Below are positions 2,305 to 45,145 of a DNA stretch of 45,226 nucleotides, piece by piece. The stretch lies in IMG/VR virus record IMGVR_UViG_3300045988_098743, positions 1 to 45,226 of that record; one strand, given 5' to 3'. The notes below the pieces were generated by a model that ran no database searches, was not told the origin of the DNA, and worked only from the letters and a program-made list of their open reading frames with translations. The DNA is from a virus. The translations under genes and the position numbers were made by a program. Each line of letters starts with the position of its first letter. Within the stretch, counting starts at the first letter, position 1.

Positions 2305-4464
2305 TTATTCTCCTTTTTCTTTATAAAACATTTTTCTTAATGTAATTATATCTTTTTGTAATGTTTCTTCATCTTGTTGCTTTAACCAAGCATAAAAATA
2401 GTTAGATGTTGCATTATATAACCTTGAAAACTTAACCTCTCTTTTGTGTAAAACTTTATCTTTTACACTTCTCATTAACTTCCAAAAATTATAATATGGA
2501 AATTTTAACTTGGTCATAAAGTTATTGTTTTCAATAACAACACCCTCTATGTCATCCTTACTTAAATCTTCTTCATCTGTGTTTTCTAAATACCATCTAT
2601 GAAAATCTCTTACATTATCAAATTCTTTATAAATGGTTTTGCATTCACAATTAACCAATTCGGCTAGTCTTTGCACTTCTTTATAAGGTGCTTTTTTAAA
2701 TTCAAAATCATTATATATAATGTCTAATAAAACAATTTTAGATTTATCATATTCAATTATATGTGGATCATTTTCTATATCTATTACTTCAAAAGTTAAT
2801 GATACATTGTTTTTTTGTAAATAATCTTCTAATTTTTCTTTATCAATGTTACTTTCTTCATAAATCTTTTTAAAATATTCCGCATATGTTCCTACGTTTG
2901 TAGATTTACTTGCCATGAAGAGTTTTCCATTTACCCAAGACATTATACCTAAAAAACCATTTTCTTTCTTATAACACGTTATTTTACCTTTAAACGTGGC
3001 TATTAAATGTTCTAATTCTGTTTCTCTTTTTTCATTAACATTGAAAAACTTTTCATATCCTCTAGCTACTACTTTACCACTATTTGTGTCTAAAAATAAT
3101 CCCCTTGCTTTGCAAGTTAAATCATTCCAATTTTTGTTATAAAATGCTTTATGTGTGAAATTGAAAGAACTTATATTATCATCTAATTCTGTTTCTCTAA
3201 TGTCACTAGATAATCTTAATTGTTCTATAATAGGTATTTCTTTTAATATTTTTTTAGGTTGTTCTTCTTCATTTATTTTTTTGCCAAACACATCATTTTT
3301 TATTTTTATTATTTTTGGTTTTTGACCTTTTTCAAGTTGTAAAACTTTTAAATTACCACCAAATTCTATTTTTCCCTCAAGATTATATGACTTATTATCT
3401 ACATCATCTATTTCAAACGTATTTCTATGTCCGTGAATTTGAATAACATCTTTATAATTTTTAGCCCATACATCATCAATGTCTACATTATAATCACCAA
3501 CACCATTTATTAATTGTTCGGTTGCCACATTCTGTAAATCACTAGGCATAAAACTTAACCCACCATGAGAAACTAAATACTTATTATCATCATATTCAAA
3601 ATAAGCCAATTGTCCTAACTTTCTATAAAATGTTCTTAATTCTTTCTTTTGTAAACTTTCTAACTCAAATATTGTATGTTTTAAAAACTGGTTAGATTTT
3701 ATTCTTTCTAATTCATCTAGTGCATAATAATTCATCCACTTTTCGTGATTGCCCTCTAAAAACAAAACATTTTTATTTTGATATAAAGTTAATAAAAATT
3801 CCATTGTTTCTTTGTTTTGAACGCCACGGTCTATATAATCTCCACAAAAAATGTACATTTCATCTTGCGAATATGGATTATCTTCAAAATATTTTTTTAA
3901 TGGTTCATAGCATCCGTGTATATCCCCAAAAATATGTATTTTCTTATAAGCATTAAGGTCAAATAATTTTACTTCAATTTCTTCTGGAAATGTTTCTTTA
4001 TTTAATTTAACCCAACCACTTGTTTTCCCTTGTGTTCTTAATCTTGAATACATTTTATCAATTACACTTTCAGGAACTCTTTTATAATCTTCTCTTAAAG
4101 AATTTCTTTTTTTACATTCTTCTATCGAAACATCACTAAAATCTAAATAATATCTTCTATATCTATAACGTTCACATAATTTATTATACCTACTAAAATC
4201 ACTTGAACGACTATGCGTTGCATCTACAACAACTAATTCTCCACGTGCCATTCTTTTTTCTAATAATTCAAATAATAATGCCCATACATAACTATCATTT
4301 TTTTGGCTTATAACTCTATGTAATTTATCAGGAACTATTATAGGGCTTTCAAATAATAATCTTATGTTATCTGCACTTAACGTATAATTTTCTAAATTAT
4401 GTTCTTTAATATAAGTTGATTTTCCACTAGCAGGGCTTCCTCTTAAAATTATTAAATTTCTCAT
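2305..4464 (-). CDS. pnkp: polynucleotide kinase-phosphatase with C-terminal ligase-like adenylyltransferase domain (bacterial Pnkp-type RNA repair enzyme)
   Basis: - N-terminal P-loop: ILRGSPASGKST.
- Central calcineurin-like phosphoesterase motifs: GDIHG, GDYIDRG, GNHE.
- C-terminal nucleotidyltransferase motifs: KENG (motif I), EGVVI (motif IV), KLKFPYY (motif V). Confidence 0.8.
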   Translation of the reverse strand: MRNLIILRGSPASGKSTYIKEHNLENYTLSADNIRLLFESPIIVPDKLHRVISQKNDSYVWALLFELLEKRMARGELVVVDATHSRSSDFSRYNKLCERYRYRRYYLDFSDVSIEECKKRNSLREDYKRVPESVIDKMYSRLRTQGKTSGWVKLNKETFPEEIEVKLFDLNAYKKIHIFGDIHGCYEPLKKYFEDNPYSQDEMYIFCGDYIDRGVQNKETMEFLLTLYQNKNVLFLEGNHEKWMNYYALDELERIKSNQFLKHTIFELESLQKKELRTFYRKLGQLAYFEYDDNKYLVSHGGLSFMPSDLQNVATEQLINGVGDYNVDIDDVWAKNYKDVIQIHGHRNTFEIDDVDNKSYNLEGKIEFGGNLKVLQLEKGQKPKIIKIKNDVFGKKINEEEQPKKILKEIPIIEQLRLSSDIRETELDDNISSFNFTHKAFYNKNWNDLTCKARGLFLDTNSGKVVARGYEKFFNVNEKRETELEHLIATFKGKITCYKKENGFLGIMSWVNGKLFMASKSTNVGTYAEYFKKIYEESNIDKEKLEDYLQKNNVSLTFEVIDIENDPHIIEYDKSKIVLLDIIYNDFEFKKAPYKEVQRLAELVNCECKTIYKEFDNVRDFHRWYLENTDEEDLSKDDIEGVVIENNNFMTKLKFPYYNFWKLMRSVKDKVLHKREVKFSRLYNATSNYFYAWLKQQDEETLQKDIITLRKMFYKEKGE

Positions 4465-18879: not shown

Positions 18880-18955
18880 TGGAGGGGCTAGTTGGATTTG
18901 AACCAACGTTCAAAGTTTTGCAGACTTTTGCCTTAACCAACTTGGCTATAGCCCC
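18880..18955 (-). tRNA. tRNA-Cys (anticodon GCA), encoded CCA
   Basis: Cloverleaf folded by hand: 7-bp acceptor stem GGGGCUA/UAGCCCC, T-loop UUCAAAU with a 5-bp stem, 5-bp anticodon stem AAAGU/ACUUU with loop CUGCAAA. Confidence 0.85.
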
Positions 18956-29486: not shown

Positions 29487-31742
29487 TCACCTCGTACTTA
29501 CAATACTAGACGTTCCTAGTCTTCTTTCTTCATTTTTATAATCTTTATATGTTGCTCTTGCCATTTGTTGACCATTAATATATAAGTTAGTATCTTTTTC
29601 AAGCAATTCATTCATAGTTCTATTTAAATCTAACAATAAAGCATTTGTTTCTTCGTTATTGTTCACATTGTTGAAATATTCAGCACTATTAAATTTCTTT
29701 GGTATTACTGCTTCACCTTTATGTATATATGCTAATTGGTCTTCTGGTACATAGTTAGTACCAACATTTAATAAAGGTATTTGTTGTAAATTAAATCCAA
29801 CTTCTTTTCCACCTACTTTAGGTATCCAATCAGGTGTTTTTATTTTTACTTTATTAAGACCTCTTATAATTACATTTATACCTTTTATAATAAAGTTTAT
29901 AGCAGATTTAAACGCACTTTTTATTGTGTTTAATATTCCTTGTATCAAGTTAGATACTTCTCTTATAATTGGTGGTAATGTAGTTCCTATTGCATAAATA
30001 ATATCTGTAATTCCTTTAAATATGGTTTGTAACAACATATTTAATGTTGGTCCAGATTTAACAATGAAATTTGACACAGCGTCTAATATAGTTGGTAATG
30101 TCTTTTTCATAACTAACAATATTGCAGATAATGAGGCTGCTAACGCTACCACTGCTATTAAAGCTAATGGATTTGAACCTAATAATAATGCTAGAACAGA
30201 CATTGCTGTCATAACAACTACCATAGTACCAAATACACCAGCTAATGTCTTAAAGACATCTCCTGCATTCATACCTGTTTTATTCATTGCCGTTAATAAT
30301 TTTGCAACAGAGCTTAATACTAATGCCATACCACCTAGAACCGCTATTGCTCCAATTGCACCTTGTATATCGATTAATTTAGTTGCTAATGCTATTCCAG
30401 CAAATGCAAGTGCTAGTTCTCCCAAAGTAATTGCTAATAATCCTGCCACTTCTCCTAGTGTTAATCCACTATCAGCAAATGTTTGTATTAATTTAGATAC
30501 TTCTTTAATTACAGTGCCTAAAGCCCATAATATTGCAGCTGCACCAGCTAGCGTCATAAGATTTTTAAGTCCTTTACCTAAATTATCAAAAAATCCAGTG
30601 AAATTAGTTTTTGCACCTAATAAATCTTTACCACTTTTTTTAAATCTACTTCCAAACAATAAAATTCCAATTCCAACTGCTGCTACTAAAGGCAATAACC
30701 ATTTCCAATTGTCTTTAACCCATCCAAAGAATGGTTTAAGTATATTATCCCAAAATTCTCTTACTTTTTTACCCAATTTTTCTAATTTTTCAGCAATTCC
30801 TTGATCTATTGGTACATCATCAAACGTTTTAAAAGGATTTTCTCCCTCTGCTCCTGTTTTTTTATTTTCATCTTTACTTATATTAGTAATTTCATCCATA
30901 TCACTTAAAGAGTGATTTAACTCTTTAGTAGCCTTATTTTGCTTTTTTAAACTTGCTGTTGCCTTTTTAGATGCTTTAGCAAGTAAATCCTGCCCTGTAA
31001 CGGCTTTTATGAATATATTCATATATTTAACCAATTTAAGTATTTTGTTTGCTATAGCCTCTATAATTGGTGCTAAAAACGCTCCTAATCCTGCCCAAGC
31101 AGAAGATAATTTATTTGCTAAATCAGTATCTGCTGACAAATATTCAGATGACGCTTTACTTACACCAGATAATATGCTTTGTATACTAAATAATGATAAT
31201 GCAAATCTTAATACACTATTACGCATTTTGCTAAAAGCATTTGTAACATTTGTACCAGTACCAGCACTTTTAGTACTTGTTTTATCTACTTCTTTATTAG
31301 CATCCTTTTGTGCTTTGGTTAATTGTTTTAATTCTGCCTCAGCACTACCAATAGCACTTGCATATTCTTTAAAAGCCCTTGAACCTGGGGTTGTAGATTT
31401 CATTTCTGCTTTTAATTGCCTTATTTGAGCTTTTAATTCCATTATTTTTATGGTTGCTTCTTGAGTATCAACATCAATTCTATTACCACTCCAAGCATTT
31501 CTTATCTGATTTAAGACATTTGTTCCGAATGCTTTTAAATTATTCATTTTTGTTTTAAATAAATTTTCTTTAACATCTGGTTGCACATCTACTTGTTTAT
31601 TTGGTTCTACATAATCAGATACTGCTTTCCATTTATTTTTTACTGCATTTGATGTTTTTTGTGCTAAATCTTGTACTTTTTGCATCTTGTTTTCAAAACC
31701 TTTGGTTACAGCTTCTAAAACAACAGTAAATTTCTCTTGCAT
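29487..31742 (-). CDS. tail tape measure protein
   Basis: 751 aa; coiled-coil N-terminal half, long Gly/Ala/Leu-rich TM block; follows the chaperone pair. Confidence 0.8.
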   Translation of the reverse strand: MQEKFTVVLEAVTKGFENKMQKVQDLAQKTSNAVKNKWKAVSDYVEPNKQVDVQPDVKENLFKTKMNNLKAFGTNVLNQIRNAWSGNRIDVDTQEATIKIMELKAQIRQLKAEMKSTTPGSRAFKEYASAIGSAEAELKQLTKAQKDANKEVDKTSTKSAGTGTNVTNAFSKMRNSVLRFALSLFSIQSILSGVSKASSEYLSADTDLANKLSSAWAGLGAFLAPIIEAIANKILKLVKYMNIFIKAVTGQDLLAKASKKATASLKKQNKATKELNHSLSDMDEITNISKDENKKTGAEGENPFKTFDDVPIDQGIAEKLEKLGKKVREFWDNILKPFFGWVKDNWKWLLPLVAAVGIGILLFGSRFKKSGKDLLGAKTNFTGFFDNLGKGLKNLMTLAGAAAILWALGTVIKEVSKLIQTFADSGLTLGEVAGLLAITLGELALAFAGIALATKLIDIQGAIGAIAVLGGMALVLSSVAKLLTAMNKTGMNAGDVFKTLAGVFGTMVVVMTAMSVLALLLGSNPLALIAVVALAASLSAILLVMKKTLPTILDAVSNFIVKSGPTLNMLLQTIFKGITDIIYAIGTTLPPIIREVSNLIQGILNTIKSAFKSAINFIIKGINVIIRGLNKVKIKTPDWIPKVGGKEVGFNLQQIPLLNVGTNYVPEDQLAYIHKGEAVIPKKFNSAEYFNNVNNNEETNALLLDLNRTMNELLEKDTNLYINGQQMARATYKDYKNEERRLGTSSIVSTR

Positions 31743-31757: not shown

Positions 31758-32006
31758 CTATTTCATACCTCTTTTATAATATTTTGCCATCATCCAAGCT
31801 GGCATTTTATAAGTCTTTTTCGGAGGATATAGTTCTGGGCTTGCGTCTTCTGGTGTTTGTGGAAAATCTTTATTAAATAATCTCCCTACTAATACAGCTT
31901 GTTTCCACATTTGATAAGCTAAACCCTTTCTTCTACTTATTAATGTTTCTCTAAGTTCATATAAAGTCATATCATATAACTCATTTAAATTTAAACCTAA
32001 TTGCAT
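31758..32006 (-). CDS. tail assembly chaperone, T-like ORF (candidate +1 frameshift extension of the upstream ORF)
   Basis: Its frame is open upstream through the stop of 32050..32442 back to 32064. Confidence 0.5.
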   Translation of the reverse strand: MQLGLNLNELYDMTLYELRETLISRRKGLAYQMWKQAVLVGRLFNKDFPQTPEDASPELYPPKKTYKMPAWMMAKYYKRGMK

Positions 32007-32049
32007 TAATTCATCATAATACCTATCTATTATTCCACTAATAAATCTA

Positions 32050-32442
32050 TTATTTTCTGGGAGTTATCGGTTCTTCTAGTTGTTCTCTTTTCTCATTTTC
32101 TGCTTTTCCCTTTAATTGCTCTAAATCTTCTTTTTTCATAAATCCACTGATTACTAGGGCTTCCATTATAATGTTTATATAAACTTCTTCCATAGTTAAT
32201 CCAGCATCAATTAATTCATCATATAATTTTTCAGAGTCAGTAGCACTAAAGTTTGGTACTTCTGGTCTTCTTAAGTACATTAGCATATTAGTTATCATAG
32301 TTATTGAAACGTGTGATACATAATCTAATAATGATATTTTATTTTTGCTTTCTATAGTTTTCATATCACTTGAAACTAATCTTAATTTTAATGTTTTTTC
32401 TTCTCCGTCAAAAGTTTTATAATTGTATTCAAAAAATCTCAT
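32050..32442 (-). CDS. tail assembly chaperone (G-like)
   Basis: 130 aa; acidic C-terminus; sits between the major tail protein and the tape measure. Confidence 0.55.
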   Translation of the reverse strand: MRFFEYNYKTFDGEEKTLKLRLVSSDMKTIESKNKISLLDYVSHVSITMITNMLMYLRRPEVPNFSATDSEKLYDELIDAGLTMEEVYINIIMEALVISGFMKKEDLEQLKGKAENEKREQLEEPITPRK

Positions 32443-32518
32443 AATTGTATTTCCTCATCTTTCTATTTTTTTATTTAAAAAGAGGTAAGAAAGGCTTACC
32501 CTTTCCACCTCTCTATTT

Positions 32519-32983
32519 TTAGGCTACTCCTAAATCTATTACAGGTTCATCAATTGGTGATAATGTCATATTAAAACCAATTATATCTCCGTAAGAACCA
32601 CCACGTATCATAGTAGATACTTTACTTCTAAATGATATAGTTACACCATTTGATAGTTCATACTTCCAAAATACTGGTTGTCCAGCATCTTCTAAATCAC
32701 TTGCTAATTTTATATTAGCTTCTGTTGCTGGGTCTTCCATATTAAATTCAAATGTATATTTTTGTACATCTTGCAAACCTTGAATTGCAGTTTTGAATTT
32801 TAAGTTATCCATAGAAGTAGTTTCTATGTCTTCTGGTTCAGAACCAATATCAGGTGTAGTAGTTAAACCTTTTATTTGTTTAAATGTACCCTCTTTGGTT
32901 GCAGAATAAGATAACTTGGTACCAGTATAAGCATGATAATTTAAATCTGCTTCAGCAAACTTTTGAATATCTAATTTTACCAT
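32519..32983 (-). CDS. major tail protein (siphovirus tail tube)
   Basis: 154 aa; position and composition; FAEADLNY start typical of Gram-positive siphophage major tail proteins. Confidence 0.6.
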   Translation of the reverse strand: MVKLDIQKFAEADLNYHAYTGTKLSYSATKEGTFKQIKGLTTTPDIGSEPEDIETTSMDNLKFKTAIQGLQDVQKYTFEFNMEDPATEANIKLASDLEDAGQPVFWKYELSNGVTISFRSKVSTMIRGGSYGDIIGFNMTLSPIDEPVIDLGVA

Positions 32984-43727: not shown

Positions 43728-43829
43728 ATATTCTCCTTTTTATTTGGCAGAGGTTCTAGGTTATGCTCCCAGTTCTTCGGATTTGGAGCCCGATATTTTT
43801 CTAATTAAACTAAACCTCTATAAAGCATC

Positions 43830-44059: not shown

Positions 44060-45145
44060 TTATTCTCCTAATTGTTTTATTAATTTAAATGCCTCTTCTA
44101 TTGTTTTGTCCATATCAAAATATTTATATTGTCCTAATCTTCCAGCAAATATAACTTTATCATTTTTAATTTTAGCATATTTTTGGTATAATTTTTCATT
44201 TTTTTTATCGTTTATAGGATAATAAGCGTTTTCTCCATCATATTTACAAGGATATTCCTTTGTTATTATAGTTTTTTTACTTATACAATTAGCAAAATGT
44301 TTATGTTCTATAATTCTAGTATAAGGTATTCGCTTCTCTGTATAATTTATTACTGCATTGCCTTGAAAATTTTCTACATTTAAAGTTTCTTCTTGAAAAC
44401 GTAAACTACGGTATTCAAGTTTACCATAAATATAGTCATAATAAGCATCTATTTGCCCTGTGTAAATTATCTTTTTACATTTATTATTATAATATTCTTT
44501 ATTTTTTATATAATCTCTATTAAGTTTCACATCTATGCCTTTTAACATGTTTTGAATTATAGTTGTATATCCGTGTTCTGGTATACCTTGGAATTTAGCA
44601 TTAAAATAGTTATTATTATAGGTTAATCTTACTGGAAGTCTTTTTATGATAGATGCTGGTAATTTTTTACACTTTTTGCCCCATTGTTTTTCTGTATATC
44701 CTTTAATTAAAATTTTATAAACATCTTTGCCCACCATAGAGATTGCTTGTTCTTCTAAATTAGTAATTTTTTTTATTTTTCTTTTTTGTTTATTTATTTT
44801 ATCTAAAACTTTTTTTGGAGTATTTGTATTTTTCCATATTTTAGTAAAAGTGTTCATATTAAATGGTAAATTATAAACTTTATTTTTATAAATTGCTATT
44901 GGCTCATTTATAAAACTATTAAATTTATCAAATTTATTTATATAATCCCAAACGTCTTTATTATTAGTATGAAATATATGAGCACCATATTTATGTATAT
45001 AAATATTATGTTTTTTCTCTGTATATATATTTCCACCAATATGATTTCTTTTATCTATAACTAAACACTTTTTCCCTCTATCGGTTAACTCTCTAGCCAC
45101 TATACTTCCATATAATCCTGCTCCTACAATTAAATAATCATACAT
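44060..45145 (-). CDS. glf: UDP-galactopyranose mutase
   Basis: - Near full-length match to Glf: MYDYLIVGAGLYGS FAD-binding motif, HIGGNIYT, HKYGAHIFHT, NLEEQAISMVGKDVY, IKGYTEKQWG, YTRIIEHKHF, YYPINDKKN.
- Probable start at ATG 45145; the track's TTG at 45148 is 1 codon upstream. Confidence 0.9.
   Translation of the reverse strand: MYDYLIVGAGLYGSIVARELTDRGKKCLVIDKRNHIGGNIYTEKKHNIYIHKYGAHIFHTNNKDVWDYINKFDKFNSFINEPIAIYKNKVYNLPFNMNTFTKIWKNTNTPKKVLDKINKQKRKIKKITNLEEQAISMVGKDVYKILIKGYTEKQWGKKCKKLPASIIKRLPVRLTYNNNYFNAKFQGIPEHGYTTIIQNMLKGIDVKLNRDYIKNKEYYNNKCKKIIYTGQIDAYYDYIYGKLEYRSLRFQEETLNVENFQGNAVINYTEKRIPYTRIIEHKHFANCISKKTIITKEYPCKYDGENAYYPINDKKNEKLYQKYAKIKNDKVIFAGRLGQYKYFDMDKTIEEAFKLIKQLGE

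Follow-up and report, generated by a model that had tools for sequence, protein, structure and literature searches.

The G-T frameshift of long-tailed phages is reportedly conserved, as set out by Xu, Hendrix and Duda in 2004. In phage lambda, two small open reading frames (ORFs) lie between the genes of the tail tube and the tape measure protein, and the second can be reached only by a change of frame near the end of the first. Lambda slips by -1 in tandem on G_GGA_AAG, and its G:GT ratio is roughly 30:1 (PMC5009743). Shifts of -1, -2 and +1 have all been documented for G-T pairs (Atkins 2016 review, PMC5009743). In this study, we analyzed a viral DNA of 45,226 nucleotides (nt), positions 1 to 45,226 of the IMG/VR record IMGVR_UViG_3300045988_098743; this whole stretch is called the window below. 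Its minus strand carries, in order, a major tail protein gene, a G-like ORF, a T-like frame, and a tape measure protein gene, so that the two small ORFs lie between the tube and tape measure genes as in lambda. We consider it likely, from sequence comparison, that a G-T fusion is made here by a +1 ribosomal frameshift at CCC_A of the tail chaperone pair. The arrangement resembles that of lambda gpG/gpGT in that the T-like frame is accessible only if the ribosome changes frame close to the end of G, and an abundant G with a rare G-T would be expected. It differs in direction and site (+1 on CCC_A), and the chaperone pair has no detectable sequence similarity to lambda G and T.

Forward shifts at proline codons are known from Listeria phages. 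PSA, A118, and A500 make +1 shifts at CCC, at AAA CCC_UGA in tsh and at ACA_CCC_UCC_GAA in PSA cps (PMC5009743). In these phages, as proposed here, a P-site tRNA-Pro slips by +1 near the 3' end of a tail-region gene; the host is a low-GC Gram-positive bacterium there and apparently here; and CCC is rare in both (5% of Pro codons in Listeria and about 1.5-2.4% here). However, the Listeria phage sites belong to the genes of the major tail and capsid proteins, where the shift extends virion proteins at their C-termini, whereas the site described here lies in the chaperone pair. The shift is stimulated by a stop codon next to the site in tsh and by a pseudoknot in cps, neither of which is present here, and the re-paired codon is CCU in the Listeria phages and the fully cognate CCA here. 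Other cases of +1-frame access through P-site re-pairing are the G-T pair of phage Mu, the RF2 gene prfB (CUU_UGA), and yeast Ty1 (CUU_AGG). Of these, Mu shifts by -2, prfB needs a shifty stop codon and a Shine-Dalgarno sequence 3 nt upstream, and Ty1 requires AGG as a hungry codon; the present site has none of these features.

In actinobacteriophages (PMC10274946) and in the archaeal virus HSTV-2 (PMC5009743), too, a forward shift in this gene pair leads to a G-T fusion. The PRFect study lists 350 forward slippery-site cases from SEA-PHAGES joined genes, and 2,397 of its 2,476 joined genes are tail assembly chaperones (PMC10274946). Its forward motifs, runs of three or four identical bases, are compatible with the CCC considered here. 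Those viruses are nevertheless high-GC or haloarchaeal, CCC is not rare in them, and the usual rationale is a rare A-site codon or a stop codon; the likeness concerns gene pair and outcome. A reading of the window made earlier from its letters alone (the sequence-only reading) had called a +1 solution notable for G-T. It is indeed less common than -1, but it had already been documented (PMC5009743, PMC10274946), and the known picture of G-T frameshifting is unchanged. The interest of the locus is a CCC_AG site free of stimulators and the switching between -1 and +1 among close relatives.

A laboratory model exists for such a site. In Escherichia coli, CCC-A in the mRNA AUG-CCC-AGU-U, read by tRNA-Pro(UGG), undergoes a +1 shift of 1.5%, and of 4.2% when tRNA-Pro(GGG) is absent (PMC8324841). 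The shift exchanges an unstable U34-C wobble for a stable U34-A pair on a cognate +1 CCA codon, takes place during EF-G-catalysed translocation, and makes a slow A-site codon unnecessary (PMC8324841). The test mRNA of Demo et al. 2021 (AUG-CCC-AGU; PMC8324841) has the same five bases as the 13 +1 loci described below and the same six as one of them, L004. It is an artificial reporter with the site at codon 2, whereas the site here, at codon 128, would be a natural one kept by selection in a phage of an apparently low-GC host.

The G-like tail assembly chaperone ORF (32050..32442, minus strand) defines the zero frame, encodes 130 aa, and ends at TAA 32052-32050, which is followed by an in-frame TAG. 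Its 3' end (32064..32047) reads ACT (32064-32062), CCC (32061-32059), AGA (32058-32056), AAA (32055-32053), TAA, and TAG. The T-like ORF, counted from its ATG, occupies 31758..32006 (minus strand) and encodes 82 aa, with the stop codon at 31760-31758. The T-domain coding frame is +1 relative to G, covers 31758..32060 (minus strand), and consists of that stop and, before it, 100 sense codons beginning with CCA. The frames and codons given by the sequence-only reading were confirmed. It had also described the T frame as open upstream through the G stop, which is correct, back to 32064, which is one base off; the frame is open as far as 32063 and is bounded by a +1-frame TAA at 32066-32064.

Any +1 shift must fall within the resulting 14-nt overlap (32050..32063, minus strand), that is, on ACT CCC AGA AAA and the stop codon. 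The +1 frame through the site reads CTC CCA GAA AAT AAT AGA ... ATG CAA TTA GGT (LPENNRFISGIIDRYYDELMQLGLN); the -1 frame at this point is closed 20 nt past the G stop. Among the four overlap codons, only CCC can re-pair cognately, on CCA. ACU on CUC and AGA on GAA fail, and AAA on AAU pairs at two of three positions. The proposed shift site is C-C-C-A-G (32057..32061, minus strand), at which the zero-frame CCC would be re-read as CCA (32060-32058) and followed by GAA (32057-32055). The predicted G-T fusion, complement(join(32442..32059, 32057..31758)), has 227 aa. Its predicted junction is ...EEPITP|ENNRFISG..., and the tryptic junction peptide expected for a +1 shift at CCC is EQLEEPITPENNR. 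The open T-frame extension by itself (19 codons in an AT-rich genome) is weak evidence.

Relatives provided the comparison. A protein search returned 65 G homologues of 124-139 aa with 51-99% identity; a Pro located 2-5 codons ahead of the stop is conserved in most of them. A collection of cultured phages searched with the 4-kb tail region (DNA) and the 227-aa fusion (protein) gave no match. Scans of viral contigs with the single G protein and of genome contigs with a G alignment revealed no relatives; a scan of genome contigs with a T alignment revealed only distant relatives with T in the -1 frame, in metagenome-assembled genomes (MAGs) of uncertain host, and a spurious high-GC match (L030). 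The +1 arrangement was found in 13 loci (one identifier per duplicate pair, the window counted once): the window, L001, L002, L004, L008, L009, L018-L021, and L023-L025. They are independent assemblies from different samples. All 13 contain [T/A/G] CCC AG[A/C/T] within an overlap of 14-32 nt, and the G stop lies 6-15 nt beyond the first C of CCC. The codon before CCC varies (ACT, ACA, AAT, TCT, ATG), as does the codon after it (AGA, AGC, AGT); C-C-C-A-G alone is constant. Of CCC_AGA_A, whose conservation in related phages the sequence-only reading had suggested checking, these loci share CCC_AG.

Codon usage makes this constancy unusual. The window has a G+C content of 27.8%, and its codons were counted in minus-strand ORFs of at least 100 aa (11,685 codons). 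CCC accounts for 7 of 292 Pro codons (2.4%; 0.6 per 1000). AGA, which had been taken for a rare codon, is the most used Arg codon, with 298 of 402 (74%; 25.5 per 1000). The unusual codon at the site is CCC, not AGA. In ORFs of at least 90 aa of the 13 +1 loci, CCC outside the site occurs 4 times in 10,606 codons, which is 4 of 271 Pro codons (1.5%). The chance of an in-frame CCC within an overlap of 4-10 codons is 0.15-0.38% per locus, yet CCC is present in 13 of 13. The other Pro codons in the G and T ORFs of these loci (n=89) are 49 CCT, 34 CCA, 6 CCG, and no CCC. Conserved prolines elsewhere in the loci alternate freely between CCA and CCT, whereas the site proline is never encoded by anything other than CCC. 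Despite the shared ancestry of the loci, such a fixed codon among freely varying synonymous sites shows selection acting on the nucleotides themselves.

The slippery motif also follows the frame in which T lies. In three close relatives, T lies in the -1 frame, and all of them carry (A/G)_AAA_AAG, a classic bacterial -1 motif, directly before the G stop: TCA AAA AAG TAA in L006, AAC CCC ATA AAA AAG TAA in L007 (about 2882-2896), and AAC CCC ACG AAA AAG TAA in L022 (about 1873-1887). The +1 locus L002/L003 (about 2879-2893) reads CCC AGA AAA AAA TAA, so an in-phase A_AAA_AAA -1 heptamer is present there too; the -1 product from it would terminate within a few codons. In the more distant relatives, about 40 loci in number (L010-L017, four MAG loci, and 31 of 32 IMG/VR loci), T is always in the -1 frame and overlaps G by 28-157 nt; in the remaining IMG/VR locus, L036, no upstream G ORF lies within the recovered DNA. 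Because all more distant relatives carry T in the -1 frame, -1 appears to be the ancestral state of the chaperone family, and +1 with CCC_AG the derived state of one subclade. In neighbor-joining trees, which have no bootstrap support and are no more than suggestive, L006, L007, and L022 nest among the +1 loci, and the G part pairs L007 with L004 and L022 with L024. The C_CCC of L007 and L022 could itself allow a -1 slip of tRNA-Pro alongside x_AAA_AAG, and their C_CCC_A sites may be intermediates of the switch between -1 and +1.

Fusions were built for 19 loci of both types, with the shift placed at CCC in the +1 loci and at the last sense codon in the -1 loci. The predicted products are collinear and have 218-228 aa in 18 of the 19; the 5'-truncated L016 gives 205 aa. 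Conservation of the T domain (ISxxIDxYYxELxQLG...LYDMTLYEL...PELYPPKK) sets in immediately past the junction, ahead of any ATG. Across +1 and -1 loci, the T domain has 41-80% identity and 11 invariant residues, and the T frame is free of internal stops in more than 50 loci. The site CCC_A, the +1 direction, and the G-T product put forward by the sequence-only reading are thus backed by the relatives, through CCC_AG in 13 of 13, frame-matched motifs, and collinear fusions.

The same alignments bear on the possibility that no frameshift occurs and that T is a separate small protein, made by internal initiation or by termination-reinitiation, for example at ATG 32006. This ATG does open an 82-aa ORF in frame, gene callers annotate T ORFs of 50-91 aa from internal Met codons in relatives, and non-frameshift mechanisms have been reported for T4-like phages, according to a reference listed in PMC10274946. 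However, ATG 32006, which lies 44 nt after the G stop, is not conserved and is replaced by Ile in L001, L002, and other loci. The sole universally conserved Met of the T frame sits within the LY(D/E)MT motif, and about 15 conserved T-frame residues (ISxxIDxYYxEL) precede the first ATG. Start candidates in the T frame are not conserved in position and lack a Shine-Dalgarno sequence, with duplexes of about +0.7 to -4.8 kcal/mol versus -5.6 to -14.5 kcal/mol at the starts of G and the tape measure gene. A separate T would also leave the invariant rare CCC and the match between motif and frame unexplained. We regard independent synthesis of T as unlikely.

If a frameshift does occur, the +1 frame might be reached at another place or in another way, by tRNA-Lys slipping +1 at AAA_UAA, by a shift of -2, or by hopping over a short distance. 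AAA stands directly before the TAA stop in the window, and stops are classic +1 stimulators; L002 has a run of seven A before its stop; and -2 shifting is known for the G-T of phage Mu (PMC5009743). The re-pairing of AAA on AAU is nevertheless poor, and the last sense codon in relatives is AAA, AAG, GAT, or AGA, most of which are unable to re-pair in the +1 direction. No -2 re-pairing site is common to the loci, and CCC_AG alone is present in all 13, which makes a slip elsewhere very improbable.

A change of frame could also arise in the RNA or DNA, either because the polymerase slips on an A-run during transcription or because an indel from assembly or sequencing has broken up what is one G-T gene. 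The A-rich stretch after the site (AGAAAATAA in the window, seven A in L002) and a homologue, P0039, that reads into another frame in a manner suggesting an A-run indel would fit such an origin. But the window has four consecutive A, too few for efficient polymerase slippage, and L004, L019, and L024 lack an A-run in the stretch from CCC to the stop. The frame arrangement is identical in all 13 assemblies, and if G and T formed one ORF, there would be no free G, which the lambda paradigm calls for. We give this origin hardly any credence. As to the two aberrant database homologues, the end of P0039, ...KKSQQVISRLL, is what an L008-like sequence encodes in the -1 frame, probably owing to an indel in an A-run, and P0063 has an unrelated low-complexity C-terminus and probably comes from a chimeric or erroneous contig. 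Finally, that T is a decaying or non-functional remnant and CCC an inherited accident is barely conceivable, for although the loci share ancestry and CCC is also kept in two -1 relatives, the T domain is too well preserved in identity, invariant residues, and freedom from stops, and other conserved prolines switch between CCA and CCT while the site stays CCC.

A +1 slip at CCC would proceed as follows. Most ribosomes would read through CCC AGA AAA TAA and release the 130-aa G protein. In a small fraction, peptidyl-tRNA-Pro would be held on the rare CCC, most likely by a weak U34-C wobble of the tRNA-Pro with anticodon UGG. Either during translocation or in the P site, this tRNA-Pro would then move forward by one base to pair with the cognate CCA. 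Decoding would resume at GAA AAT AAT AGA... in the T frame and yield the 227-aa G-T fusion. If the pair works like lambda gpG/gpGT, both proteins would use their G part to coat the tape measure protein, and the rare fusion would use its T part to recruit the tail tube protein. We infer the tRNA involved, an efficiency of a few per cent, and the functions of G and T; a shift of 1.5-4.2%, as in the laboratory model, suits a lambda-like G:GT ratio.

Many low-GC Firmicutes and Mollicutes decode all CCN codons with a single tRNA-Pro(UGG), and the host of the window appears to be a low-GC Gram-positive bacterium. Two hints point that way and are to be read only as hints: the closest cultured large terminase subunits (TerL) are those of Clostridium perfringens phages (52% identity), and distant relatives were located in MAGs labelled Tenericutes or Bacillales. 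The tRNA genes of the phage itself are those for tRNA-Cys(GCA) and tRNA-Trp(CCA), at 18880-18955 (minus strand) and 43745-43819 (minus strand).

Several observations weigh against a +1 shift at CCC. No stimulatory RNA structure is conserved, as judged by folding 42-67 nt on the 3' side and 60 nt on the 5' side in each locus and by RNAalifold on 13 loci. RNAalifold gave -0.76 kcal/mol, and per-locus z-scores were mostly about 0; the window's own 3' hairpin has a z-score of -3.65 and is absent from relatives. An Rfam search returned only a chance microRNA match (E 0.75). Nor is a prfB-type Shine-Dalgarno element conserved: the upstream sequences are AT-rich, and GGAGG-like strings are present only in some loci and at the wrong spacing, 12-13 nt before the site. 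The stop is not next to the site either: the G stop lies 1-4 codons past the codon after CCC in relatives. The A-site AGA is common, so there is no rare-codon stimulator. No recognised stimulator is present, and therefore the efficiency could be very low. The window contains no tRNA-Pro gene. Two -1 loci, L007 and L022, keep the rare CCC, preceded by C (AAC CCC A), and the codon could there be inherited rather than selected. The base after CCC_A is always G, though the zero-frame residue (Arg or Ser) and the +1-frame residue (Glu, Ala, Val, or Asp) vary, and a Ser after CCC is always AGY, never the commoner TCN; this invariant G is a context constraint that the proposed re-pairing does not account for. 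Lastly, the 13 loci share descent and are not independent, and multiplying the per-locus probabilities overstates significance.

Part of the mechanism proposed by the sequence-only reading fell with the stimulators. Its tRNA-Pro was to slip while the A site waited at AGA, as in Ty1, but AGA is common here and is replaced by AGC or AGT in relatives. Nor can the stop act as in PSA, since it is two codons away in the window and at a variable distance in relatives. That reading had counted a common AGA in the host as grounds for rejecting the shift. The phage's own codon usage, on which the check was run, shows AGA to be common; only the hungry-codon detail is refuted by this, because CCC-A slippage needs no slow A site (PMC8324841). 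Codon supply gives no uniform answer. PRFect looks for a +1 A-site codon commoner than the zero-frame one, which is found in the window (GAA 66.9 versus AGA 25.5 per 1000), whereas the order is reversed in L004 (GTC 1.6 versus AGT 24.6) and L019 (GCC 3.0 versus AGC 7.4).

One possible, and still tentative, account is that the clade naturally uses a minimal, stimulator-free CCC_AG, through intrinsic slippage of tRNA-Pro(UGG) on the near-cognate CCC at the translocation stage. If so, the G:G-T ratio would be set by the tRNA-Pro repertoire of the host and its modification state. The direction of the shift would have flipped repeatedly between -1 ((A/G)_AAA_AAG) and +1 (CCC_AG) among chaperones of 60-70% identity, with the C_CCC_A sites of L007 and L022 as possible intermediates that work in both directions. 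The G that always follows CCC_A would represent a new determinant of +1 slippage in the 3' context. The site would then be a natural counterpart of the laboratory CCC-A/tRNA-Pro(UGG) model, operating without a hungry codon, an adjacent stop, or an RNA structure. Close relatives that carry -1 or +1 with the matching motif would form a compact system for the evolution of frameshift direction and for the constraint of host tRNA on recoding. Gene callers truncate or split the T ORF in all of these contigs, and recognition of CCC_AG lets the predicted 227-aa G-T fusion be annotated correctly across this clade of uncultured gut and rumen siphoviruses.

The identity of the two proteins as G and T is suggested mainly by synteny and by a modest fold match for G. 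The order tube-G-T-tape measure is also present in relatives, and the position of the ORFs between the tail tube and tape measure genes agrees with their earlier assignment as a tail assembly chaperone pair. Neither G nor T has a match in Pfam. In PHROGs, G matches phrog_2115 ("tail protein") weakly (E 0.01), and one of 14 T members matches phrog_2066 (E 0.0033), with no family match otherwise. An AlphaFold model of G from a 32-sequence alignment (predicted local distance difference test score, pLDDT, 81.6) matched entries named "tail assembly chaperone" in BFVD (template modelling scores 0.62/0.68, probability 1.0, E 3e-3). Its top match in the Protein Data Bank was weak, the HK97 tail assembly chaperone 2ob9 (E 0.84). 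A single-sequence model of the T domain was of low confidence (pLDDT 67.4), and a fold search with it gave no meaningful matches.

The major tail (tube) protein gene (32519..32983, minus strand) lies directly upstream of the pair. Its product matches phrog_158, major tail protein (E 2.3e-13), and matches Pfam Phage_TTP_11 weakly, under the cutoff (E 2.5e-5). Between its stop and the start of G, a terminator-like hairpin with a T-run lies at 32483..32506 (minus strand), where two overlapping terminator-like sites were found versus 0.5 expected from shuffles. By stopping some of the transcripts, this hairpin may reduce the expression of the chaperone and tape measure genes. Between G and T, signals resembling promoters or terminators did not exceed background. 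The tape measure protein gene (29487..31742, minus strand; 751 aa) lies directly downstream; its product matches phrog_1535 (E 3.6e-18) and phrog_58 (E 7e-14), and its strong Shine-Dalgarno sequence (GGGAGGAGG) forms a duplex of -11.9 kcal/mol.

Two other genes in the window were noted. In a 719-aa ORF at 2305-4464 (minus strand), domains of three kinds are joined, namely an AAA_33 kinase, a calcineurin-like phosphoesterase, and an RNA ligase 1 of the T4 type (E 4.5e-41). The product resembles a tRNA-repair enzyme in which Pnkp and Rnl1 are fused and may serve to counter host anticodon nucleases. At the window edge, 44060-45145 (minus strand) encodes a UDP-galactopyranose mutase (Pfam GLF, E 4e-77), which may be unusual cargo or flanking host DNA.

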